Assembly: GCA_951812955.1 (NCBI GenBank)
Contig: OX638340.1
Coordinates: 1,280,001 to 1,344,000, forward strand
Length of the DNA stretch: 64,000 nucleotides
Source of the DNA: an uncultured Gemmatimonadota bacterium
Lineage (GTDB): Bacteria > JAAXHH01
Reading direction: 5' to 3'
The notes under the pieces are model-generated. The model saw only the letters and a program-made list of their open reading frames with translations, did no database searches and was not told the origin of the DNA. Numbering within the stretch: the stretch's first letter is position 1; each line of letters opens with the position of its first letter. Shown here one piece after another: positions 4,546-44,566 of this stretch. Both the position numbers and the translations under genes were made by a program.

Positions 4546-4638
4546 GACCTGGATGCCCACCTCAGTTTGACCTGGATGCCCACCTCAGCTTGACCTGCAT
4601 GCCCATCTCAATCCTGCCTGCATACCCATCTCAGAACG
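4546..4638. repeat. Four degenerate tandem copies of a 23-bp unit (gacctggatgcccacctcagYtt) spanning the stop codon of the TonB receptor gene.
   Basis: Read directly: units at 4546, 4569, 4592 and 4616. The stop TGA (minus strand) at 4631-4633 lies in the last unit. Confidence 0.7.
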
Positions 4639-7600
4639 TATACCTTACCCCAATCTGGACCTGCCACCTGGATGAGAGGTTGGTAGTCTGGAACACGTCC
4701 TCACGGTCGATTTTCCCATCTTCGTTGGCGTCCCGGACCCGGAGGTCCAGGTCCGGCCTGCCCTGTTCGTCGTATCCGTCGAAATTGAACAGGCCTGCGG
4801 CGTCGAACAGCACGTAGCGGCTCTGACCCCAGGCGCCGTTGATCAGGTTGGCCAGGTTCAACACGTCCAGCGTCAATTCGAAGTGGTGGGTCCGAATCGA
4901 GGGCAGTTCCTGGATCAGGCGCAGGTCCAACCGGTTTCGCCACGGCGAGCGGGACGCGTTGCGTTTGACGATGGCGCCCCGGGCCGCGCGCAAAACGGGA
5001 TCGGAATCGACAAAAGCGTCGATCGCCCTCCACTCGTCGTCGGTTACCATTGCGCTGACGTCGCTCCTGCTCGCCGGGATGTAGGCGAGGTCGTTGCCCC
5101 TTATGCCGTCGCCGTTCACGTCGTCGGCGTACATGTAGCTGTAGGGATCTCCCGCGCTGCCTTCGTAAAAGAGGGAGAGCGTCGTGGCGAGTCCCCGTCC
5201 GAATTCGTATTTCCATGACCCGGTGGCCAGGACCCGGTGACGGACTTCGAAATCGGACGTTGCGGTCGTCTCGCCGTTGGGGTCGTCGGTCTCGTTGTAC
5301 TGCCAGTTGGAGATGGCGCGGCTGGACCGTCCGCTGTTGACGTCCTCGGCGTCCTGGAACACGTAGGCGACGCTTCCGAAGAGCCCGGGCAGAAAGGACG
5401 CGTTCCCTCTCTTGCGTAGGCGCAGTGTCAGGTTGAACTGGCGCCCCTTGTCCGTGTTCTCCAGGAGTATGACATTGGTGAAATCGCCGCTGACCGTCTT
5501 CCCAGCGTAGTCGGACCGGCCGTCCGGAGTCCTTCCCGTCGGGCGGCCGTTGTCGCCGATGTTGAGGTTGCGGAAACGGACCTCGTCGATGTTACGGGCA
5601 AGCAGGAGTTCCACGGTTCCGACCAGATCCAGGGGCAGTCTGCGGTCGAGGGCGAGGTTGGCGCGAAAAACCCGGGGCAGCCGAAATTCCGGGTCGATGA
5701 CGTTTACCTCCGAGGTCTCGGGCGCGTCGAGACGGCCATCCAGCGGAAGCGGTTGCGCGAAAGGATCCGCCACGAACGCAGGAACGTCCTGGTCCCGGAA
5801 GGATGCAAGATCGATGCGGGTGAAATCCACCCCCGTGTTGCTGTACGCGTTGGAGAGCCAAACGGCCGGCGGCAGCCCCGCGAAAACCCCGCCGCCGCCG
5901 CGGAACTGCGTCCCGCGGTCCCCTCCCGCGTCGAAGTTGAACCCGAAGCGCGGCGACCAGAGGATCCGGCCGCCCGGAGTCCGGTCCGTCCGATGTCCGG
6001 CGAACTGGCGGGCGAATCGGTCGTTGGACAGAGGTTTGTCCGGCAGGATCGGCACTTCGGCCCGCAATCCGAATTTCACGCTGAGCCGAGGACTGATCCG
6101 CCAATTGTCCTGCGCGTAGAATCCCATCTGCACGTAGTCCCACGCGGCGCGGGGCTGTTCGACGCCGGGCACCATAGATCGGCTAAGGAGGTAGCGGGTA
6201 GGCTCACCACGCTCAAAGGCCTCGATGCCGTCGAACTCGTAGGCGCCGTAGTAGTCCTGAATGAACAGGTTGTCGAAAGAAATGAACTCGTTGTGCGTGC
6301 CGATCGTTATGGTATGATCCGCCCTGAACAGGTGAAGGTCGTTGGTGAATTCGAAGGTGTCCTGGTTCAGCGCGTTGGCCTGGGAGAACCGCTCCACGCC
6401 AAGCCGGACCTCGCCGAGGAACGCTCCGCCTGCCTCTTCGAGGTCGATCTGTACCTGGGGGAAGGTGCCGGACAGCGGCGACCTGCTGTCCCGCACGCGG
6501 CTGTAGGACAACCGAGCTTCATTGGCCAGGCTGCCGGAGAAAGTGCTGTTGAGTTGCGCGACCGTGGACTGGGTGACGTTATCGCGTGTAAACTGGTTGC
6601 TGGTCAGTGTAAAGATTGTGCGACCCCGGCGCAATCCGTCGTCCAGGTCGCCGGTTACATAGTTGTGGCGCAGGGTGAGCCGGTGCCTGGAAGACAGGTT
6701 GACGTCAAGCCGCCCGAAGAATTTCTCATTACGCGTGCGCTGAGAAAAGGGATCGAATCCCCCGGCATCATAGCCGTAATTGTCGCGGGCGATGTCCACG
6801 ATTTGCTGAAGGGCAGCCGACCCGGCGCCGAAACGGATGGGCTGGCCTGAATCCGCGGGACCGACGCTCGAAGGACTTGCACGCCGCCGCAGTTCACCGT
6901 TGATGAAGAAGAAAACCCGGTTGGTGACCAACGGTCCACCAAGCCGAAAACCAAGCTGATAGTCGGCAAAATCTCCGAATTTGTCGCCTTCCAGGTCCCC
7001 CACCAGGGATTCGTTCCGGCCGAAATAGTACAGGGAGCCGCGGAACCGGTTCGTTCCACTGCGCGTTACCGCGTTGATGAGCCCGCCCGCGAATCCACCC
7101 GAACGGACGTCAAAGGGCGCCACCTGGACCTGAAACTCTTCGATGGCATCGAGGCTGATCAGCTGGGCATTCACCTGCCCTGTGGGCAGACCCTCGTTCG
7201 ACAGCCCGAAGGCATCGTTCAGCACGGCGCCGTCCACCTGGAAGTTGTTCATGCGGTTGTTCTTACCCGCGATACTTTGCCCGCCGGCTTTCGACGCCGC
7301 TTCAGGCGCCAGCCGGGTATAGTCCTGTATGCTCCGGGCAATGGATGGCAGCCGGGCGATTTCGTTGGCCGTGACGTGGGTCTCGGTTCCGATGTTCGAT
7401 GCGTTGAGCACCTCGTCCCTGTGGGCTGTGACGACGACTGCCTCGGTCTCGATGACGTCCTCGCGCAACCCGAAGTTCACACGCAGGTTCTGCCCCATCG
7501 ACAGGGTTACATCCCGGCGGACAGCGGTTTGATATCCGATATAACTGACTCGTATCTCGTACGGACCGCCGGTCCTGAGTCCCGCAATGTTGTACCGCCC

Positions 7601-7792
7601 GTCGGCACGGGAAAACACGCCTGAAGAGACTCCCGTGGGCTCATGCAGGGCGATCACGGTGGCGTCAGGGAGCGGCGCACCATTGTCATCCAGAATCCTG
7701 CCGTTGAGCGTCGCGGTTGTAATGCCCTGCGCGTTGACCAGGGTCGATGTGGGAAGGACCAGAATCAGAATAGTTCGGAGCAAGATACGCAT
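4631..7792 (-). CDS. TonB-dependent receptor with N-terminal carboxypeptidase-regulatory-like domain plus plug and 22-strand barrel.
   Basis: Signal peptide MRILLRTILILVLPTSTLVNAQG, CarbopepD_reg-like RILDDNGAPLPDATV..GRYNIAGLRTGGPYEIRVSYIGY, and C-terminal ..VRYTF terminal aromatic. 1053 aa. Confidence 0.85.
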   Translation of the reverse strand: MRILLRTILILVLPTSTLVNAQGITTATLNGRILDDNGAPLPDATVIALHEPTGVSSGVFSRADGRYNIAGLRTGGPYEIRVSYIGYQTAVRRDVTLSMGQNLRVNFGLREDVIETEAVVVTAHRDEVLNASNIGTETHVTANEIARLPSIARSIQDYTRLAPEAASKAGGQSIAGKNNRMNNFQVDGAVLNDAFGLSNEGLPTGQVNAQLISLDAIEEFQVQVAPFDVRSGGFAGGLINAVTRSGTNRFRGSLYYFGRNESLVGDLEGDKFGDFADYQLGFRLGGPLVTNRVFFFINGELRRRASPSSVGPADSGQPIRFGAGSAALQQIVDIARDNYGYDAGGFDPFSQRTRNEKFFGRLDVNLSSRHRLTLRHNYVTGDLDDGLRRGRTIFTLTSNQFTRDNVTQSTVAQLNSTFSGSLANEARLSYSRVRDSRSPLSGTFPQVQIDLEEAGGAFLGEVRLGVERFSQANALNQDTFEFTNDLHLFRADHTITIGTHNEFISFDNLFIQDYYGAYEFDGIEAFERGEPTRYLLSRSMVPGVEQPRAAWDYVQMGFYAQDNWRISPRLSVKFGLRAEVPILPDKPLSNDRFARQFAGHRTDRTPGGRILWSPRFGFNFDAGGDRGTQFRGGGGVFAGLPPAVWLSNAYSNTGVDFTRIDLASFRDQDVPAFVADPFAQPLPLDGRLDAPETSEVNVIDPEFRLPRVFRANLALDRRLPLDLVGTVELLLARNIDEVRFRNLNIGDNGRPTGRTPDGRSDYAGKTVSGDFTNVILLENTDKGRQFNLTLRLRKRGNASFLPGLFGSVAYVFQDAEDVNSGRSSRAISNWQYNETDDPNGETTATSDFEVRHRVLATGSWKYEFGRGLATTLSLFYEGSAGDPYSYMYADDVNGDGIRGNDLAYIPASRSDVSAMVTDDEWRAIDAFVDSDPVLRAARGAIVKRNASRSPWRNRLDLRLIQELPSIRTHHFELTLDVLNLANLINGAWGQSRYVLFDAAGLFNFDGYDEQGRPDLDLRVRDANEDGKIDREDVFQTTNLSSRWQVQIGVRYTF

Positions 7793-34464: not shown

Positions 34465-36402
34465 TCAATAACCGCTGTTCCCTAACCTGACACCGATGTA
34501 GCCGGTCATGCCCACGGTTCCGTATCCCAGGATTTCCTCGTACTCCGCATTGAGCAGATTGTCGATCCTTCCGAATAACTGGATGTTCGGTGTGACCTTC
34601 CAATTGGCGGCCACATTCACGATCCCGTAGCCATCCAGCGTTACCGGTGTGGCGGGCCAGGTCGAGAAGTCGTTGTCCCTTCGCTCCCCCGAAAAACGGA
34701 AACTCAGGTTCAGATCTACGCCCTGCCGTACTCGCTGATCAAGGACGATCCCGCCGCTGTGCCTCGGCCGTCTCAATAACTGCTCATCCGACTCATGGTC
34801 CTTCGAATCGGTCAAAGTATAGTAGGCACGCAGGGAAGTTCCCGCGATTCCCACATACCGTCCGGTCAACTCCAACCCCTTGCTTGTGGCCTTGAACACG
34901 TTCTTGTAACTGGATGTTTCGCTGTCCCACCCGACCATATTGTCGAAGGTATTGTCGAAATAGGTCACGCCGGCCACCAGCTTCTGATCGGCCAGGTACT
35001 GCTCCAGCCCCGCTTCCCAGCTCTTGCTGGTCCCGGCCTGGAGCGTGGAATCACCGAAGGAAGAATGCAGTTGAAACAGTGACGGCGCCTTGTAACCCGT
35101 ACCGTAGGCGCCTTTGATCCTGATTCCCGACGCTTCGAAGTACGCGTTTGGCGCGATGCTGTAGGTGACTTTAGAACCGTACCGGCTGTGATGATCGGCT
35201 CGCACGCCAAGGGTTGCAAACAGCGTATTGCCATACTGCAGCAACTCCTGCAGATAAGCACCGGTCATCCTTGCGGATCGGCGATCGAACTTGCTCGGGA
35301 ATCGGCCCCTTGATTCTGATTCTCCCTGTTCCGTTTCGGTTTCGGCGCCGAATACGAGCGTATTCCCGCCAGACAGCATCAGCGTGTTCTGCCAGTCTAT
35401 TTTGTGCAACCGCGCGTAGAACGTGGAGTTCGAAGCCGTTTCCTGGTTCTCGTCCACCGGATTGTCGTCTTCCCTGCTGTGATCGACGAGGCTATATCCC
35501 AGGGTCTGCTTCCATCGCTGCGACCACAATTCGAGGGTGGCCGAGGGACGGACAAACAGTTGCCTGGAGGAGTTTACCCGATTGGGATCGTCCCCATCGG
35601 GACCGGCTCCATTATCGATATCGGCCCGGCCATCCGTGAAACGAAACGTGAGATCGACCGAAGCATTCGCGGCGGGCGTCGCCCCGAAGCGTCCACCCAC
35701 CGTGGTGTTTCGATAGCCGTCTTCTTCCTGGTTCCCCAGGGCATTCGCTGAAATACCCCGAGCGTTCAGGAAGGAGCCGTCGATCGCATACTGGTAACTG
35801 TCCGTTCCGCCATTCAATCCCGCCCGGCTTCGAAACGTACCCAGGGCGCCGCCCTCGAAGGATGCCCCGATCTTTGGCTTACCCTCACCGCGCTTCGTAA
35901 TGATGTTCACGACCCCCGCGATGGCGTCCGACCCGTACAGTGTACTCTGGGACCCGTACAGCACCTCGATACGTTCTACCTGGTCGACGGTCAGATGCGC
36001 CGGGCTGTAGCCGCGACCCGGAGACATGGCATCGTTGACCTCGATTCCATCGATCAGAAACAGGGTGTAGGACGATTCGGCACCGCGAAGAAAAACAGAC
36101 GCGTTATTACCCGTGCCGCCAGCCTGTGCCATGCTCAAACCGCCCACGTCGCGCAGCACGCCGGCGACCGTGTTCTGGCTGCTGCGTTCGATATCGTCGG
36201 CGGTGATTACGGCGATCGAGCTCGACACCTGCCGCAAGGGTGTTTCGATTTTCGCAGCGGTTACGACAACGGCATCCAGAATGTATCTGGGTTCCTGGTC
36301 CACCGGGTCCTCCGGGTCCGGTGAATTCTGCGCAAATCCTGGCGCTGCGGACAGCAGGTAAAAACAGAGCACGGCTTTAATCGCATGTGGTATGTGTTTC
36401 AT
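34465..36402 (-). CDS. btuB: TonB-dependent receptor, BtuB-like (vitamin B12/cobalamin outer-membrane transporter).
   Basis: Signal peptide; plug domain with TonB box-like DAVVVTA; barrel ending in aromatic ..GY. GGGAGG SD 6 nt upstream of the ATG at 36402. Preceded by a cobalamin riboswitch. Confidence 0.8.
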   Translation of the reverse strand: MKHIPHAIKAVLCFYLLSAAPGFAQNSPDPEDPVDQEPRYILDAVVVTAAKIETPLRQVSSSIAVITADDIERSSQNTVAGVLRDVGGLSMAQAGGTGNNASVFLRGAESSYTLFLIDGIEVNDAMSPGRGYSPAHLTVDQVERIEVLYGSQSTLYGSDAIAGVVNIITKRGEGKPKIGASFEGGALGTFRSRAGLNGGTDSYQYAIDGSFLNARGISANALGNQEEDGYRNTTVGGRFGATPAANASVDLTFRFTDGRADIDNGAGPDGDDPNRVNSSRQLFVRPSATLELWSQRWKQTLGYSLVDHSREDDNPVDENQETASNSTFYARLHKIDWQNTLMLSGGNTLVFGAETETEQGESESRGRFPSKFDRRSARMTGAYLQELLQYGNTLFATLGVRADHHSRYGSKVTYSIAPNAYFEASGIRIKGAYGTGYKAPSLFQLHSSFGDSTLQAGTSKSWEAGLEQYLADQKLVAGVTYFDNTFDNMVGWDSETSSYKNVFKATSKGLELTGRYVGIAGTSLRAYYTLTDSKDHESDEQLLRRPRHSGGIVLDQRVRQGVDLNLSFRFSGERRDNDFSTWPATPVTLDGYGIVNVAANWKVTPNIQLFGRIDNLLNAEYEEILGYGTVGMTGYIGVRLGNSGY

Positions 36403-36491
36403 CTTGCCTCCCGATATGGTAGATGGTTCGGTGCCTGCAAATTGACGACGCGCATTGGGGTCCATCAGGTCGTTGATTCAGATCGATCTCC

Positions 36492-36535: not shown

Positions 36536-36679
36536 ATGCCGTTTGTCATCCTCGGAATACGGCCACTTGCAGATTACGCCCCAATGAATATACTACGGGA
36601 CAAAAACGCCTGGCGGCCGTACTTACGATTATCCATGTACACCGGACGACTTCAGTCCACGGAAGTCCCGATGAAAACT

Positions 36680-36850
36680 ATGGGCAGGTCGGTCTTCTGG
36701 CTTCCGGATCGATCTACTCGCCGCGCCTTCCCATTCCCGGAGGAACAGTGGCTCGAGCACTATGGCTCTTGATGCGGTTTTCGTCCCCGGTCACAGCGAC
36801 GGGTCCGCGACGGATTCGCACCGTCTTCCCAACTTCTCACCTGCTCCTGT
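36680..36850 (-). promoter_or_regulatory. Cobalamin (adenosylcobalamin) riboswitch aptamer.
   Basis: Minus-strand sequence GGUGAGAAGUUGGGAAGACGGUGCGAAUCCGUCGCGGACCCGUCGCUGUGACCGGGG...GAGCCACUGUUCCUCCGGGAAUGGGAAGG...GAUCCGGAAGCCAGAAGACCGACCUGCC matches the conserved Cbl riboswitch core (GGUG..AGGGAA..CGGUGnnAAUCC..GCnGnCCCGC.ACUGU; B12 box GCCACUG..GGGAAGG; ..GCCAG.AGACC.GCC). Confidence 0.85.
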
Positions 36851-36851
36851 C

Positions 36852-36880
36852 AAGATAGTACCGTTTCGGGGTGAGATCAA
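36852..36880 (-). promoter_or_regulatory. Candidate promoter for the riboswitch/btuB transcript (TTGATC-17-TATCTT).
   Basis: Weak -35/-10 match with correct spacing; TSS would fall at the aptamer 5' end. Confidence 0.25.
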
Positions 36881-37006
36881 TCGAAAACTGCGGATTACCT
36901 TAAGGTCGCAGCAAAACTGCTACGTGAGCTACTGGGAAGTGTAATCCTTGATGCGAGGGAGGATTGGTCCGGAGGCGTTCTGGAATCCGCATACAAGCGT
37001 CAATAA

Positions 37007-37762
37007 TTATGACACTTCGATAAGTATCCTGCAATGATCGCTGGGACCCCATTCTTCCGGCTTGTTCAGTGCCGTTGTTCTGATGGAATTCTTCATGCTT
37101 CGTGAAGCAAACACGTAATCCAGCTGCCTGGTGGCCGTCGCAGGTTTTTGACTGGTATGATAGTATGTGGGACCCTGGGGGCCTATCATGGGCAGACCAA
37201 TTGATGACATCCTGTCGAATACTGCTTTCTTGCGGGTCTTCCAGTATTCGTTGCTTCCATCGCCATCCATCACAGTTGTATCTCCAGCCGCGATCATCCT
37301 GAAACTGTTCTTCCTGCCTATAAGCAGCGAGATGTCCGATATGATGCGATGGATCGACGTGTCTACTAGATCACGGCTTTTAAGGCCCGATGATGGATGA
37401 TATGCCTCATACTGGGGACAGAATGACACTACATGAATCGGCCAGTCCCGGAATTTGCCTTCAAGAGGGGTCACAACGGCCGCGGACAGGCATCCCGGAT
37501 GACTGGACTGTATATCATCCAGATAACACACCTTAACCCTGTCGGATGTTTTTACTATAGCACATCTGGATCGTGCTTTGCCCCGACTATCTGGTCTAAG
37601 TGGGTCCTTTTTGTAGTATGGCGCAGGATCCACTTCAATTCTGCCAGCCACATCCTTTGGCGGTTTATAGCCTTCCTGGAGCAGGACAATATCTACGTCC
37701 AGATCAGGCAAGGATCTCCATGCCGCCCTGCGATGCCCGATATTCCAGCAGACCAGTTTCAT
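37007..37762 (-). CDS. Endonuclease/exonuclease/phosphatase (EEP) family protein, within a low-GC islet.
   Basis: N-terminal MKLVCWNIG..DIVLLQE and C-terminal GPSDHCRILIEV motifs typical of EEP (ExoIII/DNase I/sphingomyelinase) fold. Local GC ~47% versus ~65% flanking. Confidence 0.65.
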   Translation of the reverse strand: MKLVCWNIGHRRAAWRSLPDLDVDIVLLQEGYKPPKDVAGRIEVDPAPYYKKDPLRPDSRGKARSRCAIVKTSDRVKVCYLDDIQSSHPGCLSAAVVTPLEGKFRDWPIHVVSFCPQYEAYHPSSGLKSRDLVDTSIHRIISDISLLIGRKNSFRMIAAGDTTVMDGDGSNEYWKTRKKAVFDRMSSIGLPMIGPQGPTYYHTSQKPATATRQLDYVFASRSMKNSIRTTALNKPEEWGPSDHCRILIEVS

Positions 37763-37798
37763 CCAGATCTCCAAACGGTCCATCTGAAGATCGCAGCA

Positions 37799-38170
37799 CT
37801 ATGGCTTGTCGTCAAAGTACGGAGAGCAGTTTTGTTTCCAGGCCAGCCAGGTCCGACTGCCGTCGGAAGCCACAATGACGTGATCTTTGAACTTTTCCGG
37901 TATATTGGTGATTTTGCCTTGAGGGCCTTCGCCCGTTACGAACAGATCGTCCAGCGTCGTCCTTTCATGAAACAACCTGCTCTTTCCTTCGTGCACGGCG
38001 TCCTTTATTTCTGAAATCACCTGTCTGAATTCTTCTTCTATATCATCGGTTATTGTTTCCCTTTCCGACATTGTCCTTGTCTCCTTGTAGGCTTCCCACA
38101 ACCGCTTGACATGTTTGGCATACCTAAAATACTTCGCAAGCTCCAGAAGCAGTTCGAGGTATTCGGTCAT
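37799..38170 (-). CDS. Hypothetical protein (123 aa) immediately upstream of the EEP gene and in the same reading frame, separated by one TAG.
   Basis: ORF with ATG at 38170 (TTG at 38179 also possible). No recognisable domain. Same low-GC composition as the EEP gene. Confidence 0.4.
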   Translation of the reverse strand: MTEYLELLLELAKYFRYAKHVKRLWEAYKETRTMSERETITDDIEEEFRQVISEIKDAVHEGKSRLFHERTTLDDLFVTGEGPQGKITNIPEKFKDHVIVASDGSRTWLAWKQNCSPYFDDKP

Positions 38171-38285
38171 GACCTGCAATGCCTGATTTAAAGGATACCC
38201 AATGCCGCCCTGAATTCAAAGGTATTCCCGATAAACATCCAAACAGCACCCTTGTACCTGGCATAGCCTCAGTTTTCTACCACAA

Positions 38286-39941
38286 TCACCACCTGGCGTT
38301 TAACTGCAAAATCCATCGTGTTTCGACGAGGGGAACCTTGAGTTGATCGTAGCGGGTCTGACGTGTCCGCGTATAACGCACCACGGTGGAAACGCCCGAT
38401 CCGACCGGTCCGTACAGCAGGATAACCCACCTATCGCGGCGGTTGGATCGAAATAGGGAGGTCGATTCCTCCGGCTCGGGTAACCCGGCCAACGTGTATT
38501 CCCACTGGGCGGACAGGCTGACACGGTCCCTGGACCGGTATCGCATGTACAATCGCAGATCGTGCGCGGGATTCAAACCGGACTGGCCGCGTCGCTCGTA
38601 GCGGGCCCGCCACTGGACCCGGGCGGGCAGCCGCCAGGCCATCTGACCTCGCCAGGATTCCAGCAGAACCGATCCATCAATTCTATGCGCATCCATCTCA
38701 CGGCGCCACACGCCCGAGAGTACGAGGCCGCCGTTCATTCTTCGGCGAAATCGGAAGGTGCTGCGCCGGTACAACTCCAAGTTGGTCAACCGGGGTTCAA
38801 CGCTCAGTTGCAGCGTGGTCCGGCGGTCCGGCCGCCAGCGCAGGAGCAGGCTCTGCCACGTCCGTTCGGACTTCTCGATGAACCGGGCATTCGGCTGACG
38901 GTGGATAGTCAGTCCCCCTTCCACGCGCTCCATGCTCCAGATCATGCCCCCCTGAACGGTCTGGTATCCCTCATCGTCGATGGCCATTTCACCGAACAGA
39001 TTCGTACCGCCGAAGAGCAAGTCCAGGTCCACGCCAGCACGTACGCGACCTTCCGTGTGAATGGCCGAGATACCGATCAGTCCACTGTTTCGCTTCCAGT
39101 CCAGGCGGCCCCCAGGTTCCCATTTTCCCGATGCGGTCCGTGAGAGGATCCCCGTCAGGCTATAACCTGGGCGGGCAATCCGCAGCGCCACGCCACGACG
39201 GGCGCCGGATACGTAGGTCGTTCTTACGGGTCTCAGTCCCCGGACACGGCGTTTCACGGACGCACTTAGACTGGCCGTCGAAGGCCGGATCGAATGACTG
39301 CGCCACACCAGTCCCTGGCCGAAATCCACTTCGTAGTATCCCAGGATCAACATGCGGGATGCATCCGCCTGACCCAGTTCCAGGTATCCCGACCGCCACC
39401 GGGTTTCACCGTCTCGATCCCGGCGTTCCCCCCGTCCGCCCAGTCTGAACGACCGTCCGAGTTCAATGTCCCCCTGCAGACCGAGGATGCCGTTTCCCGT
39501 CGCTTCCGGACGGTCGGTGCGGCTTCGCGACAGGCGCCCGCGACCCGCGGTTTTAAAGGTGCGGACACCGTCCGCCCGAATAAAGGGACTGATTCGGGAT
39601 ACAAGAGCCTCCGTGAAACCTGGAATTCGAACGAGTTCCCCCACGCTGGTGAAGGGGCCGAGCTTTTCACGCCAGGTGACGACGGCTCCGGCGAGCGCCG
39701 GCGTGATCCACGGCAGTTGTTCCAGCTCGGTCCGGCTGGCCCGGTTGATATCGAGCGGGTCGCGCCGCAAGGAGACCAGCAGCGCGATGTCCTCCGGATC
39801 GATGTCTGCTGCTTCCCGGTCGATCAGTGCATCAATGGAGTAGTCTGGTTCCTGCCCCGACCGTTCTTCAGGAGAGAAAATCATCATTGCTAGGTACACG
39901 GAGACCAGAATTCGCCATGCGTGGTACATGAACCGGCTCAT
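38286..39941 (-). CDS. ComEA-like helix-hairpin-helix domain fused to a large C-terminal putative outer-membrane beta-barrel.
   Basis: Residues ~60-125 (DINRASRTELEQLPWITPALAGAVVTWREKLGPFTSVGELVRIPGFTEALVSRISPFI) match the ComEA HhH DNA-binding domain. Remaining ~420 aa have alternating amphipathic beta-strand character rich in R/W/Y and end ..LQLNARW (terminal aromatic). Confidence 0.55.
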   Translation of the reverse strand: MSRFMYHAWRILVSVYLAMMIFSPEERSGQEPDYSIDALIDREAADIDPEDIALLVSLRRDPLDINRASRTELEQLPWITPALAGAVVTWREKLGPFTSVGELVRIPGFTEALVSRISPFIRADGVRTFKTAGRGRLSRSRTDRPEATGNGILGLQGDIELGRSFRLGGRGERRDRDGETRWRSGYLELGQADASRMLILGYYEVDFGQGLVWRSHSIRPSTASLSASVKRRVRGLRPVRTTYVSGARRGVALRIARPGYSLTGILSRTASGKWEPGGRLDWKRNSGLIGISAIHTEGRVRAGVDLDLLFGGTNLFGEMAIDDEGYQTVQGGMIWSMERVEGGLTIHRQPNARFIEKSERTWQSLLLRWRPDRRTTLQLSVEPRLTNLELYRRSTFRFRRRMNGGLVLSGVWRREMDAHRIDGSVLLESWRGQMAWRLPARVQWRARYERRGQSGLNPAHDLRLYMRYRSRDRVSLSAQWEYTLAGLPEPEESTSLFRSNRRDRWVILLYGPVGSGVSTVVRYTRTRQTRYDQLKVPLVETRWILQLNARW

Positions 39942-39942
39942 T

Positions 39943-40752
39943 TCAGCCGAATTCCATGGTGACAGAAAACCGGTGCGTGATGCCTAGCAGGGAGTGAGAC
40001 GACAGGGCGTAATCCGTTTTCACGCGGCCCTTTTCCAGGCCCAGGCCAACATAGAACAGTGACGGATCGGTCGTCAGACCCGCCCGGATCGTTACAACCT
40101 CGGCCAGGTGAAACTCCTGCCCCACCCTCGTGGTGTAGCCGTGGCGGGGGTGGTGGTCGAACTGGAACGAAACCGTCAGGCGGTCTCCCGTCCTGCTCAG
40201 CCCCGCCTGGATGATACGCGGATTCTCAGTTGCCGTGCCGGACTCCTTGAGAAGTGCGACGGCATGGGCCATCGCGCCGAGACGAAGTTGATACGGGAGA
40301 TCTATGAGGACACCCGCGTCCAACGCGACGGCGGAAGCGCCTTCGTAGTTTTTGACTGCAAGGCTCAATCGGCGAAGCGTAAGTCCCGCATGGAATCTCC
40401 TGCTGATGGATCGTCCGTAGGAAAGGCCGAACACACCCTCCCGGTACAACGAGCTTCCGAGACCGTGGTAGAACAGGCCGATGTGGCCCAGGACGGTAGG
40501 TGCGACACCGGAGATGGCCACCTGGGCCAGCTCTTTCATGCCGAATAGCCGCGTGTAGTGGCTCGTCAATGCGAACCGGCCGACCTGGGGCGTACCGCCC
40601 GGATTGAGGAAGGCCGCTTCGGCGTCATCCGCGACGGCTACGAAAGCGCCCGCCATGCCGACCGGCCTCGCACCGGCAAAAACTGGTTCGAATGCGCTCC
40701 AGGCCGTACCTGGAGTCAATAGCAGTAACAACAGCGGTAGTATCCGTTTCAT
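39943..40752 (-). CDS. Small FadL/OmpP1/PorV-like outer-membrane beta-barrel protein; first gene of a two-gene operon with the HhH-barrel protein.
   Basis: Signal peptide MKRILPLLLLLLTPGTAWS. N-terminal FAGARPVGMAGAFVAVADDAEAAFLNPGG resembles the FadL-family N-terminal motif. Only ~270 aa, shorter than FadL. Stop is 1 nt from the downstream ATG. Confidence 0.5.
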   Translation of the reverse strand: MKRILPLLLLLLTPGTAWSAFEPVFAGARPVGMAGAFVAVADDAEAAFLNPGGTPQVGRFALTSHYTRLFGMKELAQVAISGVAPTVLGHIGLFYHGLGSSLYREGVFGLSYGRSISRRFHAGLTLRRLSLAVKNYEGASAVALDAGVLIDLPYQLRLGAMAHAVALLKESGTATENPRIIQAGLSRTGDRLTVSFQFDHHPRHGYTTRVGQEFHLAEVVTIRAGLTTDPSLFYVGLGLEKGRVKTDYALSSHSLLGITHRFSVTMEFG

Positions 40753-40920
40753 TTGGGCTCCCATCTCGAAATGATCGACTTGTTTCTCTATTCAAAGCGC
40801 CACACTTCATCAGTCGGAAGCACATCATGAAATCTCGTTTTAGACTGCCATTAATCGGCCTGAACCCGCTCCAATCTCGTATTGACTCCCACCCCTGATC
40901 CCGTATATTGTGGATGGTGC

Positions 40921-40994
40921 GCCCCAGTAGCTCAGTTGGACAGAGCATCGGACTTCTAATCCGAGGGTCGCAGGTTCGAATCCTGCCTGGGGTA
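40921..40994 (+). tRNA. tRNA-Arg (anticodon TCT).
   Basis: Manually folded cloverleaf: acceptor GCCCCAG/CTGGGGT, D-arm GCTC-AGTTGGACA-GAGC, anticodon stem TCGGA/TCCGA with loop CTTCTAA, T-arm GCAGG-TTCGAAT-CCTGC, discriminator A. G1:U72 wobble noted. Confidence 0.8.
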
Positions 40995-41054
40995 TGGGAA
41001 CCGGGCTTTCAGCGTAGTCCGCGCAGTGGTTGCGCCGGTTCCCGGTTCCCCCGT

Positions 41055-41128
41055 GCGTCCGTAGCTCAGCTGGATAGAGCAACTGACTTCGGATCAGTAG
41101 GTCGGGGGTTCGAATCCCTCCGGGCGTA
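41055..41128 (+). tRNA. tRNA-Arg (anticodon TCG).
   Basis: Cloverleaf: acceptor GCGTCCG/CGGGCGT, D-arm GCTC-AGCTGGATA-GAGC, anticodon stem ACTGA/TCAGT with loop CTTCGGA, T-arm GGGGG-TTCGAAT-CCCTC. G1:U72 wobble again. Confidence 0.75.
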
Positions 41129-41194
41129 TACATTTCATCGACATCCCCATCTGTTCATCGTTTCCAAGGCATCGATTGCCGGGAAGGAACGACC

Positions 41195-42280
41195 ATGGAC
41201 CGTATCAGGATCGGCGTGATCGGCTGCGGTGCGATCGCCCAGATTCAGCATCTGCCCCATATCGCCGAGCTCCGGGACCGGTACGAGCTGGCTGGGCTTT
41301 GCGACGCGTCCGCGAAGCTCGTGGACTTCATCGGCGGGATGTACCACGTACCCCAACGCGCCCGGGTCACCCGGTACGAGGAACTCCTCGGACTCGATCT
41401 CGACACCGTGCTGCTGTGTTTCGCCGACCCCAAGACCGAAGTGGCCGTCGCCGCGCTGAATGCGGGAAAACACGTCTTCATCGAGAAGCCCATGTGCTTT
41501 ACGGTCAAGGATGCGGACCGGATCATCGGTGCCGCCGAGGCTTCGGGCAAAACCCTGATGGTGGGGTACATGAAGCAGCACGACCCGGGATACCAGTTCG
41601 CGCGGAACGAGGTCCTCGCCATGTCGGATATCCGCTTCATCCAGGCCAACCACCTCCACTGCGGCAACGACCGGCACCTCCAGGAATTTAAGCTGTATGC
41701 CTTTGACGACGTTCCGCGCGACCTGATGGAGGACACGGCGCGGAGACGGGAACAGACCGTCCGGGATGCCATAGGCGACGCCCCGGAAGCAGCCCGCCGC
41801 ATCTTCTTCTCCCTTTCCGGAAGCATGATCCACGACATCAGCAGTTTGCGCGGCATGTTCGGGCCGCCGGAACGCGTGATCAGCGCGGAAGTATGGCGGG
41901 ACGGAACCAGCGTAACGACCGTGCTGGCCTACGAGAACGACGCGCGCTGCTCGGCGACCTGGACGAGCCTGCCAGGCCTGCATGATTTTCGGGAGACTCT
42001 GGAAGTCTTTGGCGCGGAGCGCCGCGTGAGCATCCGGTTTCCCACGGGATTCGACCGGGGACTGCCGACTCCGGTGACGGTGCAGGGCATGGACGGCGAA
42101 CAGCCCTGGAAGAAGGAACTCGTCGTAAACAAGCAGAATGCCTTCAAACTGGAAATGATCCACTTTCATGATTGCGTCGTGAACGGAAAACAGCCCATCA
42201 CCGACGGATACGGCGCCCGGCAGGACCACGCCCTGTGCCGGGACATCGTCAACGCGTACCTGGGGAAAAACACTACATGA
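41195..42280 (+). CDS. Gfo/Idh/MocA family oxidoreductase (inositol 2-dehydrogenase-like).
   Basis: Rossmann IRIGVIGCGAIAQIQHLP, EKP motif (HVFIEKPM), and C-terminal domain. Confidence 0.8.
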   Translation: MDRIRIGVIGCGAIAQIQHLPHIAELRDRYELAGLCDASAKLVDFIGGMYHVPQRARVTRYEELLGLDLDTVLLCFADPKTEVAVAALNAGKHVFIEKPMCFTVKDADRIIGAAEASGKTLMVGYMKQHDPGYQFARNEVLAMSDIRFIQANHLHCGNDRHLQEFKLYAFDDVPRDLMEDTARRREQTVRDAIGDAPEAARRIFFSLSGSMIHDISSLRGMFGPPERVISAEVWRDGTSVTTVLAYENDARCSATWTSLPGLHDFRETLEVFGAERRVSIRFPTGFDRGLPTPVTVQGMDGEQPWKKELVVNKQNAFKLEMIHFHDCVVNGKQPITDGYGARQDHALCRDIVNAYLGKNTT

Positions 42281-43209
42281 AGATCGTCTTCTGTACCCTG
42301 ACACTCAGTCCGTACCGTTCACCCGAAGCCGCGGAGCGAGGCTATCCCCTGGCCGAGGAGCGCAAACCCGTGTGGGACTGGCTCGTCCGTCACGGATTCG
42401 ACGGGATCGACCTGGGTGAGACCTGGTTCAACTTCTACGACGCCCCGGACGAGGTCCTGGTCGAACTCGGCGAGGAGGCGCGCGAGCATAGTCTCGAAAT
42501 CGGCGGACTGACCGTTCTGCGCAAGATCATCACCTGGCCGGCCCCGGAAGAGGTCCGCGCGACGAACCGGGGACTGCTGCGAAGGGCGGTAAAAGCGGCC
42601 CAACTCGCCGGCGCGCCGCTCGTCAACATGTCCATTTCGCCGCAACCCTGGGAAGTTGGCGTGCGCGAACAGGATCTCCGGGGACAGTCCGACCCGGTGG
42701 GCAGCAGCCTGCGGGCGCGGGACGAAGACTACGAGGAAGCCGCCGGGGTGTTGAAAGCGCTGGCCAGGGAGGCCGAACCGGAAGGCACCGAACTGACGCT
42801 GGAACTGCACCAGAACAGCATCGTGGACACCCCGGAGGGCATGCTGCGGCTCATCGATCTCGTCGGCCATCCCCTGATCAAGGCGAATCCGGACCTCGGC
42901 AATTTCTACTTCGCCTACGCGACACCCGACGGCGGCTGGGACGACGTGTGCCGGATGCTGGCGCCGCACACCAACTTCTGGCACGTCAAGAACATACAGC
43001 GGATCTACTTCCAGGAAGAAGACCGCGCACAGCACATCAACGCGCCACTCGGCGAGGGCATGATCGATTACCGGCGGGCGCTCCGGATCCTGCGGGACGG
43101 CGGATTCGACGGATATATCAGTATCGAGCTGGCCACGGGCGCCGATCCCTTCAACGCGATCCTGTCCGGGAAGCGATACCTGGACGAAATGATGCAGGAC
43201 GGGATCTGA
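42277..43209 (+). CDS. Sugar phosphate isomerase/epimerase (xylose isomerase-like TIM barrel) family protein.
   Basis: TIM-barrel AP-endonuclease-2-like segments (LELHQNSIVDTPE, ISIELATG). ATGA overlap with the upstream gene. Confidence 0.7.
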   Translation: MKIVFCTLTLSPYRSPEAAERGYPLAEERKPVWDWLVRHGFDGIDLGETWFNFYDAPDEVLVELGEEAREHSLEIGGLTVLRKIITWPAPEEVRATNRGLLRRAVKAAQLAGAPLVNMSISPQPWEVGVREQDLRGQSDPVGSSLRARDEDYEEAAGVLKALAREAEPEGTELTLELHQNSIVDTPEGMLRLIDLVGHPLIKANPDLGNFYFAYATPDGGWDDVCRMLAPHTNFWHVKNIQRIYFQEEDRAQHINAPLGEGMIDYRRALRILRDGGFDGYISIELATGADPFNAILSGKRYLDEMMQDGI

Positions 43210-43212
43210 GAG

Positions 43213-43271
43213 GCCGGCGATTTCCGGCCTGATTCCGGCATGACTATCGGCCTGATTCCGGCCTGATTCCC
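43213..43271. repeat. 4-5 tandem copies of an 11-13-bp unit (cggcctgattccgg).
   Basis: Read directly, just after the stop codon of the preceding gene. Confidence 0.55.
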
Positions 43272-43321
43272 TTTAGCATCTTCCGGGTTTATTCCAATGG
43301 GCTTACCCACCTGATTCCTAT

Positions 43322-44566
43322 GTGGAAATCACCTTGAAACTGAACTTCTTCCAGATGTTTGCGCTGATGGGCCCGGGCATCGCCGTGGCGGCCACCGGGG
43401 TCGGCGCGGGCGACATGATCTCGGCAACCAACGCCGGGGCGAAATTCGGCACCGTGCTCCTGTGGGCCATCGTCTACGGCGCCGTACTCAAATTCGCCCT
43501 GAACGAGGGGATCGGCCGCTGGCAATTGGCGACCGGCACCACGCTGCTGGAAGGGTGGGTGGAACGCCTCGGCAGGCCCGTCCAGTATTTCTTCCTGCTG
43601 TACCTGGTCATCTGGTCCTTCCTGGTCGGAGGCGGACTGCTTTCGGCTTCCGGCCTGGCCGGCCACACGGTTTTTCCGTCTCTTTCGGTCGCCCAATGGG
43701 GTGTCATCCACGCCCTGGCGGCGTGCCTCATGGTCTGGTTAGGTAGATTCGGGTTTTTCCTGAAGGTCATGAAAGTGCTCATCGGCCTGATGTTCGTTAG
43801 TTTCCTGATCAGCGCCTGGGCGCTGCGTCCCGATCTGGGCGACGTCGTTCGGGGTATCGCGATACCCAGCGCGCCATCCGGATCGGTGGTCGCGGTACTG
43901 AGCGTCCTAGGCGGTGTAGGCGGAAGCCTGTCCGTCATGTGCTACGGATACTGGATCCGCGAAGCCGGGCGAACCGGAAGCGAATGGGTGAAGGGCATCC
44001 GAATCGACCTGGCAGGCGCTTACATCCTGACGGGTTTCTTCGGTATCGCGGTTATGATCCTGGGCGCCCAGATCCAGCCCGAAGCCGTGGGCCTGGACAT
44101 TGTACTGAGCATGGCCGACCGGCTGGAAGTGGCGATGGGACCCTTCGGAAGGTGGTCCCTCTACCTGGGATTCTGGGCCGCGGTCATCACGTCGGTCCTG
44201 GGCGTCTGGCAGGGCATCCCCTATCTCTTCGCTGATTTCATGTCGTTGTTCAAAAACGCGTCCAGCGAGGACCGGGAGAACATGGTCCGCACCGATTCGC
44301 CCTACTACCGGGGGTTTCTGCTGTTTCTGACCTTTCCGACCATGGTCTTGCTGCTCTTCGACAGGCCGGTCGCCGTGGTCATCGTATACACCGTTGTCGG
44401 CGCGCTGTTCATGCCGTTCCTGGCCGGGACCCTGCTCTACATGAACTCCCGGAAGGACTGGGTCGGCAGGCTGAGGACGGGATGGTTGCTGAACGCGATG
44501 CTGATCCTCGCGCTGGTCCTCTTCCTTTACCTGGGCGTCAACCAGTTGATTCAAACCCTGGGCTGA
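43322..44566 (+). CDS. NRAMP-related divalent metal cation transporter family membrane protein.
   Basis: ~11 TM; N-terminal GPGIAVAATGVGAGDM...AGAKFG..LLW resembles the NRAMP/MntH consensus. Distant, so family assignment is tentative. Confidence 0.5.
   Translation: MEITLKLNFFQMFALMGPGIAVAATGVGAGDMISATNAGAKFGTVLLWAIVYGAVLKFALNEGIGRWQLATGTTLLEGWVERLGRPVQYFFLLYLVIWSFLVGGGLLSASGLAGHTVFPSLSVAQWGVIHALAACLMVWLGRFGFFLKVMKVLIGLMFVSFLISAWALRPDLGDVVRGIAIPSAPSGSVVAVLSVLGGVGGSLSVMCYGYWIREAGRTGSEWVKGIRIDLAGAYILTGFFGIAVMILGAQIQPEAVGLDIVLSMADRLEVAMGPFGRWSLYLGFWAAVITSVLGVWQGIPYLFADFMSLFKNASSEDRENMVRTDSPYYRGFLLFLTFPTMVLLLFDRPVAVVIVYTVVGALFMPFLAGTLLYMNSRKDWVGRLRTGWLLNAMLILALVLFLYLGVNQLIQTLG

Follow-up and report, generated by a model that had tools for sequence, protein, structure and literature searches.

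A conserved gene pair encoding a predicted helix-hairpin-helix outer membrane barrel and a PorV-like barrel in an uncultured Gemmatimonadota bacterium and other FCB lineages

Two adjacent genes on the minus strand of a 64,000-nucleotide stretch from an uncultured Gemmatimonadota bacterium (GenBank assembly GCA_951812955.1, contig OX638340.1, positions 1,280,001 to 1,344,000 of the forward strand; hereafter the window, to which all positions refer) encode a compact barrel protein of the PorV family and a 551-amino-acid protein in which a ComEA-type helix-hairpin-helix (HhH) domain precedes a predicted outer membrane beta-barrel of about 24 strands. Comparison of related loci by sequence identifies the pair as a conserved core module of FCB lineages (the Fibrobacterota-Chlorobiota-Bacteroidota superphylum). 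We tentatively propose that the two proteins form a two-barrel outer membrane complex that handles a polyanion, for which DNA would be the single most likely candidate.

Our literature search found no description of this architecture or pairing, and no report combining a helix-hairpin-helix with PorV or a type IX secretion system (T9SS). Database entries for the family carry generic names, one JGI entry reading 'competence ComEA-like'. An earlier note on this DNA, made from the sequence alone, had not recognised the architecture as a described system, and we agree: for the barrel we found no domain model, no solved homolog and no paper.

The gene pair and its conservation

The features of the pair, with the evidence for each in brackets, are the following.

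38286..39941, minus strand: HhH-barrel gene, 551 amino acids plus stop (open reading frame, Pfam, homologs, AlphaFold2 model)
38289..38315, minus strand: C-terminal strand WILQLNARW, resembling a beta-signal, hydrophobic at alternate residues and ending in Trp (sequence)
38289..39560, minus strand: predicted outer membrane beta-barrel of about 24 strands, residues 128-551 (AlphaFold2 model, composition, barrel profile)
39201..39347, minus strand: most conserved motif of the family, residues 199-247, ILGYYEVDFGQGLV...KRRVRGLRPVRTTY (101-member alignment)
39576..39758, minus strand: HHH_3, a ComEA-type double helix-hairpin-helix, residues 62-122, hairpins P-W-I-T and P-G-F-T (PF12836)
39855..39941, minus strand: hydrophobic N-terminal segment, residues 1-29, probably a signal peptide, with Gln30 next to it (AlphaFold2 helix 4-21)
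39939..39945, minus strand: gene junction TGA-A-ATG with a 1-nucleotide spacer (sequence reading, GGC TGA A ATG AGC)
39943..40752, minus strand: gene for a PorV-family 14-strand barrel, 269 amino acids (open reading frame, NCBIfam, AlphaFold2 model, Foldseek)
40696..40752, minus strand: Sec signal peptide predicted for the PorV-like protein, MKRILPLLLLLLTPGTAWS / AFEP (sequence reading)
40758..40762, minus strand: Shine-Dalgarno-like GGGAG, 5 nucleotides before the ATG at 40752 (sequence reading)

The two reading frames, and the single nucleotide between them, are as the earlier note had described. Taken mechanically, the open reading frame of the PorV-like gene spans 39943..40764 and 273 amino acids; its true start is probably the ATG at 40752, because GGGAG precedes it and the close homologs are all 269 amino acids long, and this agrees with the end coordinate given in the earlier note. 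The 1-nucleotide spacer is consistent with translational coupling. In relatives the commonest junction is a 4-nucleotide overlap (31 of the 75 paired loci described below), and otherwise a gap of a few nucleotides.

The close homologs of the two proteins (63-100% and 59-96% identity) are from metagenome-assembled genomes of Gemmatimonadota, and the wider family is large. When a profile of the barrel alone was searched against 1.84 billion cluster representatives (50% identity), it matched 3,082 clusters at E<=1e-3, of which 1,536 remained at E<=1e-10. Most members are 650-740 amino acids long, with the barrel starting at about residue 200, and a minority are short forms of 540-590 amino acids like the window protein. 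A further protein search with a 101-sequence alignment returned only close relatives that had already been found. Scanning one genome per GTDB species with the motif GD[YF]QxQ[FI]GQ and a 10-sequence alignment gave at least 600 stretches, 582 of them confirmed. The best 80 of those stretches came from Pontibacter, Hymenobacter, Fulvivirga, Roseivirga and other Cytophagales. The loci compared included 80 from Bacteroidota and 6 from Gemmatimonadota or Latescibacterota-labelled genomes.

To these loci we applied a hidden Markov model (HMM) of the PorV-like protein. Among 87 loci with an HhH-barrel gene, 3 had no upstream sequence, leaving 84 evaluable. Conservation of the pair among relatives, which the earlier note had put forward as a check on its proposal, was borne out: across Gemmatimonadota, Latescibacterota-labelled and Bacteroidota loci, 75 of the 84 had a PorV-like homolog on the same strand, upstream of the HhH-barrel gene. 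The two genes were immediately adjacent in 67 of these 75 loci and separated by an insert of 1.3-2.5 kb in the other 8. The 9 remaining evaluable loci had no partner within 5 kb, even with a second HMM trained on Bacteroidota partners. The pairing extends to the short forms that have diverged most, which share 29% and 42% identity with the window protein, and to a lineage of Bacteroidia in which the partner can hardly be recognised. Identity across the paired loci, which belong to at least two phyla, falls to about 17-20%.

Clustering of all neighbouring open reading frames revealed no conserved neighbour besides the PorV-like gene; peptidase S46, extracytoplasmic function (ECF) sigma factors, transglutaminase-like proteins and an Omp85/POTRA protein occurred in subsets of loci only. 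In 11 Cytophagales loci (for example L029, 966-2411, plus strand) the Omp85/POTRA protein, of 481 amino acids, is encoded on the strand of the pair, about 1.5-3 kb upstream. One lineage of Bacteroidia encodes, directly upstream of the pair, a protein of about 1,121 amino acids that could be a cargo or surface partner (L008, 762-4127, plus strand; L009, 1-2190, plus strand); it contains Ig-like domains and a lamin-tail domain (LTD), and its tail weakly resembles a T9SS C-terminal domain.

Conserved adjacency, a 4-nucleotide overlap as the commonest junction, and variable neighbours together form a pattern typical of the subunits of one complex, and we infer, by analogy with known barrel pairs, that the two proteins would interact physically. 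It is conceivable that they are instead independent, co-transcribed outer membrane proteins, such as a small channel for hydrophobic compounds and a large porin, with no coupling between them, since each could work alone as a channel. However, order, strand and adjacency are kept in the paired loci down to the lowest identities while the other neighbours change, and we regard such independence as very unlikely.

The small protein is a predicted PorV-type barrel

The leader of the small protein has a basic n-region, a Leu-rich h-region and A-W-S before the mature end, and AlphaFold2 (AF2) placed a helix at residues 3-16 with a low predicted local distance difference test score (pLDDT). The protein matched the NCBIfam model PorV_fam (NF033709) over residues 30-272 and model positions 11-326, with 58.1 bits (E=1e-15), below the cut-off of 90. 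It had no Pfam match at E<=1, including Toluene_X, and PF03349 was found only in distant homologs. A profile of its family matched the PorV sequence of Flavobacterium johnsoniae (6h3i_F) at E=1.8e-16.

The AF2 model (pLDDT 84, predicted template modelling score (pTM) 0.79) consists of 14 strands and a short N-terminal segment. Its best Foldseek match was PorV of the F. johnsoniae T9SS translocon (8gl6_F/6h3i_F; E=2.9e-10, query TM-score (TMq) 0.77), followed by FadL/TodX (E about 1e-8) and by BamG of Bacteroidota beta-barrel assembly machinery (BAM) complexes (TMq 0.48). As modelled, the small protein is a complete, compact 14-strand barrel of the PorV/FadL superfamily with short loops. Its earlier description as a truncated FadL-like protein is therefore correct as to family, by fold and by sequence, but we reject the truncation, as all 14 strands are present.

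The large protein joins a ComEA-type domain to a predicted barrel

The leader of the 551-amino-acid protein contains a hydrophobic helix at residues 4-21, apparent in both the sequence and the AF2 model, and its putative cleavage site has atypical residues at -3 and -1. Gln30 (39852-39854, minus strand), directly after the leader, is invariant in 101 of 101 aligned members from several phyla, and brings to mind the '+1 Gln' rule of Bacteroidetes for substrates of signal peptidase I.

The AF2 model of the large protein, built on a 33-sequence alignment, has about 24 antiparallel strands over residues 133-550, with pLDDT values of 66-88 over most of residues 250-550. Its Foldseek neighbours were all outer membrane barrels, but at low TM-scores (0.2-0.32), and no solved barrel closely matched the model. 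A profile search of the barrel against PDB sequences gave no match, and the 430 residues outside HHH_3 matched no Pfam or NCBIfam model. Of 87 family open reading frames, 64 end in Phe or Trp. The earlier note had proposed some 420 residues of barrel character with an aromatic end, and the predicted strands, the solved outer membrane barrels as nearest folds and the terminal ..LQLNARW all support this. The model thus points to an outer membrane barrel, and both proteins of the pair would reside in the outer membrane.

The barrel part is strongly cationic. Arg makes up 16.5% of its residues and its net charge is +34, with a family mean of +9.6; a TonB-dependent receptor 2 kb away in the same window has a net charge of -14. 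A rough alternation analysis placed 35 Arg, versus 20 Asp and Glu together, at predicted lumen-facing strand positions. The most conserved motif of the family has the consensus GDYxxQxGQGLV...KRxxxGxxPY, in which G201, G208, Q209, G210 and L211 are invariant or nearly so (n=101). It coincides with the stretch of the AF2 model that has the lowest confidence (pLDDT 25-43), and may be a plug or a loop that contacts the partner.

Residues 62-122 matched Pfam HHH_3 at E=6.4e-14, with 52.2 bits against a cut-off of 27, and this module is helical in the AF2 model (pLDDT 65-81). A phmmer search of the window HhH against PDB sequences matched EEPD1 (1e-11) and ComEA of Geobacillus stearothermophilus (8dss, 5e-9), and more weakly KIF22 and Thermus thermophilus ComEA (both about 1e-5) and PsbU (about 1e-3). 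With the family profile the matches were EEPD1 (5e-19), ComEA (2e-14), Tex (3e-9), and also KIF22 and TEFM, with PsbU at E=2.2, so that the strong matches of the family are nucleic-acid-binding HhH modules only. Identity to G. stearothermophilus ComEA is 31% over 81 residues. These comparisons indicate that the HhH fold is homologous to that of ComEA. The ComEA-type assignment of the earlier note therefore stands statistically, far beyond chance, at the level of HHH_3.

The domain was detected by Pfam in 56 of 60 diverse family members. In the Pontibacter ramchanderi orthologue (L010, 4923-7079, plus strand), there was no Pfam HHH_3 match at E<=0.001. To judge by their sequences, some Bacteroidota members keep the barrel and the partner while their HhH module drifts. 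In the window protein, the predicted barrel has an even number of strands and the domain precedes it, so that a periplasmic orientation of the domain is most likely.

A tentative model and the evidence that bears on it

We think of a polyanion, and of DNA foremost, because of the ancestry of the HhH domain and the Arg-rich barrel. The ligand of the large barrel and the direction of transport can be postulated as follows. The PorV-like barrel would dock on the wall or seam of the large barrel, as PorV does on SprA and BamG on BamA; the large cationic barrel would be a conduit or receptor for a polyanionic polymer; and the tethered HhH domain would capture DNA on the periplasmic side, like an outer-membrane-anchored ComEA. 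A bolder form of this proposal, which we consider quite unlikely, is that the pair is an unrecognised DNA translocon of FCB lineages that works without a pilus or secretin, with the cationic channel of about 24 strands, a built-in periplasmic ratchet or hand-over domain derived from ComEA, and a PorV-type gate or primer. Even the general proposal of a polyanion-handling complex stays tentative, because the DNA-contact residues are eroded, no competence gene was linked in the open reading frames and loci scanned, and DNA import across the outer membrane in Bacteroidota has been assigned to the unrelated DdbCD system.

Several observations weigh against the proposal. To our knowledge, the PorV-family proteins that have been characterised handle proteins, not DNA. 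The 551-amino-acid protein does not reach the cut-offs of the ComEA families, with partial matches of 36.1 versus 152 bits for TIGR01259 and 31.3 versus 53 for TIGR00426. In an ungapped alignment with ComEA 8dss, both hairpins are degenerate, reading W-I-T and G-F-T where ComEA has G-I-G and G-I-G: LPGIGPAKA of ComEA becomes LPWITPALA here, and VTGIGEKTL becomes IPGFTEALV. Leu83 aligns with the essential DNA-contact Lys of ComEA, and Ala112 and Leu113 stand where ComEA has K195 and T196. The substitutions are shared by the family (n=101): the Lys column is Gln in 69% and Leu in 18% of the members, hairpin 1 reads [ILGFW]-[LI]-[STN], and hairpin 2 reads G-[FL]-[DTS], mostly G-[FL]-D. The Lys of the ComEA GIGPAK motif (G. 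stearothermophilus K166, Bacillus subtilis K164, Vibrio cholerae K63) is the best-conserved residue of ComEA, which neither binds DNA nor supports transformation once this Lys is changed to Ala (PMC9747964). Hairpins of the G-h-T form are present in EEPD1 and KIF22, whose HhH modules bind DNA. DNA binding by the window HhH, with its degenerate GIG hairpins and lost contact Lys, is therefore possible but cannot be assumed. The domain had been called canonical in the earlier note, which its bit scores and hairpins contradict. The further idea that the fusion places a DNA-binding domain at the outer membrane holds for the fusion itself, an HhH joined to an outer-membrane-type barrel, but not yet for the DNA binding.

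Genetic context adds to these objections. None of comEC, comF, dprA, pilQ, type IV pilus or nuclease genes was linked to the pair among the approximately 20 window open reading frames scanned, and no competence genes were among the conserved neighbours in the 80 Bacteroidota and 6 Gemmatimonadota or Latescibacterota-labelled loci. An association with competence genes such as comEC and pilQ, which had been suggested as a check, was accordingly not found in either set. In Bacteroidota, DNA import across the outer membrane has been assigned to the transporter DdbC/RA0C_RS04915 acting with DdbD (PMC12478041, PMC8459023). An HhH protein, RA0C_RS02645, is essential for natural transformation in Riemerella anatipestifer; its HhH region spans residues 236-301, and it is reported to have three HhH domains and a predicted periplasmic location (PMC8459023). 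By these features it fits a stand-alone multi-HhH ComEA of about 300 amino acids better than the barrel family, and we have not counted it as evidence.

The structural model is itself a source of caution, being of moderate confidence overall (mean pLDDT 63, pTM 0.50) and falling below a pLDDT of 50 over residues 126-247. Together with the low TM-scores to solved barrels and the many Arg residues at predicted lipid-facing positions, these values would also fit a C-terminal region that is not a membrane barrel at all, and is instead a soluble beta-rich domain or an artefact of prediction. The regularity of the 24 or so antiparallel strands, the aromatic C-terminal strand conserved in the family, the N-terminal hydrophobic leader, and a partner that is itself an outer membrane barrel all argue otherwise, and we find this explanation extremely improbable.

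The main rival to polyanion handling is protein handling in the style of the T9SS, with the PorV-like protein as a shuttle or anchor, the large barrel as a docking platform or secondary translocon, and the HhH as a periplasmic module repurposed for protein interaction. The only sequence-level family assignment of the partner is to PorV/PorQ, and its best fold match is PorV within the SprA translocon. The HhH lacks the DNA-contact residues of ComEA, and HHH_3-like folds that do not bind DNA exist, PsbU and a GspK domain (weak matches here) being examples. The carriers of the pair are FCB lineages, in which the T9SS occurs, and the protein upstream of the pair in L008 and L009 ends in the weakly T9SS-like tail. 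Against these points, no T9SS component or cargo gene was linked in the scanned window open reading frames or in most related loci; the partner falls short of the PorV_fam cut-off and is about 130 residues shorter than PorV; the large barrel has no sequence similarity to SprA or to any PDB chain; and protein handling offers no explanation for the strongly positive barrel. A literature search on the T9SS in Gemmatimonadota gave no useful result. On balance, we consider protein handling doubtful, if a serious competitor.

The charge of the barrel would also suit the passage or export of a different anionic substrate, for instance anionic lipopolysaccharide, capsular polysaccharide or exopolysaccharide, polyphosphate or nucleotides. 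In such a system the HhH, which lacks the DNA-contact residues, would be a periplasmic adaptor, and the PorV-like barrel could handle a lipid-linked or hydrophobic moiety through a lateral opening of the FadL type; FadL-family barrels do open laterally to the bilayer (PMC12611786). Yet no glycosyltransferase, Wzx/Wzy, Lpt or ABC exporter gene was consistently linked, and the HhH profile is far nearer to nucleic-acid binders than to anything else. We judge this explanation unlikely.

Genomic surroundings

Around the pair, the window contains the following features.

34465-36465, minus strand: 666-amino-acid TonB-dependent receptor (Plug and barrel), downstream of the cobalamin riboswitch
36670-36859, minus strand: cobalamin riboswitch (RF00174, 94.8 bits, E=3e-23)
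40921-40994, strand opposite to the pair: tRNA-Arg(TCT)
41054-41129, strand opposite to the pair: tRNA-Arg(TCG)
41195-44566, plus strand: genes for a GFO_IDH_MocA oxidoreductase, AP_endonuc_2 (a xylose-isomerase-like TIM barrel) and Nramp, flanking the pair

The G+C content falls to 0.50 at about 37000-38500, compared with about 0.60-0.64 elsewhere. Within this low-GC islet (37007-38179, minus strand), one open reading frame of 258 amino acids had a weak match to endonuclease/exonuclease/phosphatase proteins (PF03372, E=1.9e-4, below the cut-off) and a second, of 126 amino acids, had no match; PADLOC found nothing in either. In relatives, the corresponding slot downstream of the pair varies, containing in L003 an open reading frame of 90 amino acids and an arginase. 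The GFO_IDH_MocA, AP_endonuc_2 and Nramp genes are syntenic with those of relatives L003, L004 and L006 at 29-75% identity. The flanking synteny is conserved, and the pair therefore belongs to the conserved chromosomal backbone. The earlier note had located the pair between a foreign low-GC islet and a tRNA-Arg pair, which is accurate as to position, but both neighbours are incidental. We rejected an origin of the pair in an insertion island or a tRNA-linked mobile element, as the flanking synteny is conserved and only the downstream slot varies.

The riboswitch and the 666-amino-acid receptor are a BtuB-like unit for vitamin B12 uptake, transcriptionally separate from the HhH-barrel pair. A link between the pair and this receptor was likewise rejected, as the receptor has a cobalamin riboswitch of its own. 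Farther away, at 4631-7792 on the minus strand, a protein of 1,053 amino acids with CarboxypepD_reg and OMP_b-brl_4 domains has the same domain annotation as the RA0C_RS04915/DdbC class. The three open reading frames that flank it contained no DUF5689; two are metabolic, an FAA hydrolase and a UxuA-like protein, and the third has no Pfam match.

Significance

The family occupies thousands of clusters from Gemmatimonadota to Cytophagales, yet we found no domain model, solved relative or paper for its large subunit. Should the pair bind or move DNA, nucleic acids would have a third route at the Gram-negative outer membrane, structurally distinct from secretin and pilus systems and from the TonB-dependent DdbCD type, with consequences for DNA scavenging and horizontal gene transfer among the Bacteroidota of soil, sea and gut. 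A translocon of the kind postulated above would explain how DNA passes the outer membrane in FCB lineages. If the pair is instead a PorV-dependent device for proteins, it would extend the theme of FadL/PorV-type barrels as general partners of large outer membrane machines, as in SprA-PorV and BamA-BamG. Either way the system is experimentally tractable, with homologs in cultured Pontibacter, Hymenobacter, Fulvivirga and Roseivirga.

Comparison with known systems

The window domain and ComEA, the DNA receptor of natural transformation, share a homologous HHH_3 double helix-hairpin-helix, and the predicted location of the window domain is also periplasmic. They differ in that ComEA is free or anchored in the inner membrane, whereas in the window protein about 420 residues of barrel follow the domain in the same chain. 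The window protein also has no SLBB or oligomerisation domain, its GIG hairpins are degenerate, and the contact Lys is replaced by Leu or, elsewhere in the family, Gln.

A parallel within the superphylum, likewise proposed to take DNA across the outer membrane independently of a pilus, is DdbC/DdbD together with RA0C_RS04915/RA0C_RS04920 (PMC12478041, PMC8459023). The proteins are entirely unlike those of the window pair, consisting of a TonB-dependent barrel with CarboxypepD_reg and a DUF5689 surface lipoprotein, and that route is backed by genetic evidence, whereas the window module is known here from sequence and predicted structure. With the ushers FimD and PapC there is an analogy of size only, that of a 24-strand barrel; the window protein has no usher plug, no usher N- or C-terminal domains, no sequence similarity to ushers, and no chaperone or pilin genes.

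FadL and TodX (Toluene_X, PF03349) resemble the small protein in having a 14-strand barrel with an N-terminal segment in or near the pore. At 269 amino acids and with short loops, the window protein is much smaller than these proteins of about 420-450 amino acids, and by sequence it is closer to PorV.

Two known complexes set a FadL- or PorV-family barrel beside a larger one. BamG, a FadL-family barrel, is a partner subunit of a larger outer membrane barrel (PMC12611786), and in BamA-BamG (PDB 9n2d, 9hiv; PMC12611786) the arrangement of a 14-strand accessory barrel next to a larger one resembles that proposed here; BamG chains were among the fold matches of both window proteins. The large window protein differs from BamA in having no POTRA or Omp85 domain, and the small barrel is less similar to BamG than to PorV. 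In SprA-PorV of the F. johnsoniae T9SS (PDB 6h3i, 8gl6), a 14-strand barrel of the PorV family accompanies a far larger one, both systems occur in FCB-lineage bacteria, and the window partner is a homolog of PorV by sequence and fold. Unlike SprA, a giant barrel to which it has no detectable sequence similarity, the large window barrel has about 24 strands within 551 amino acids and carries an HhH; unlike PorV itself, the partner is shorter, scores under the PorV_fam cut-off and has no T9SS genes linked to it. Set beside these systems, the module is classified as known parts newly combined: a ComEA-type fold, an outer membrane barrel and a PorV-type partner.

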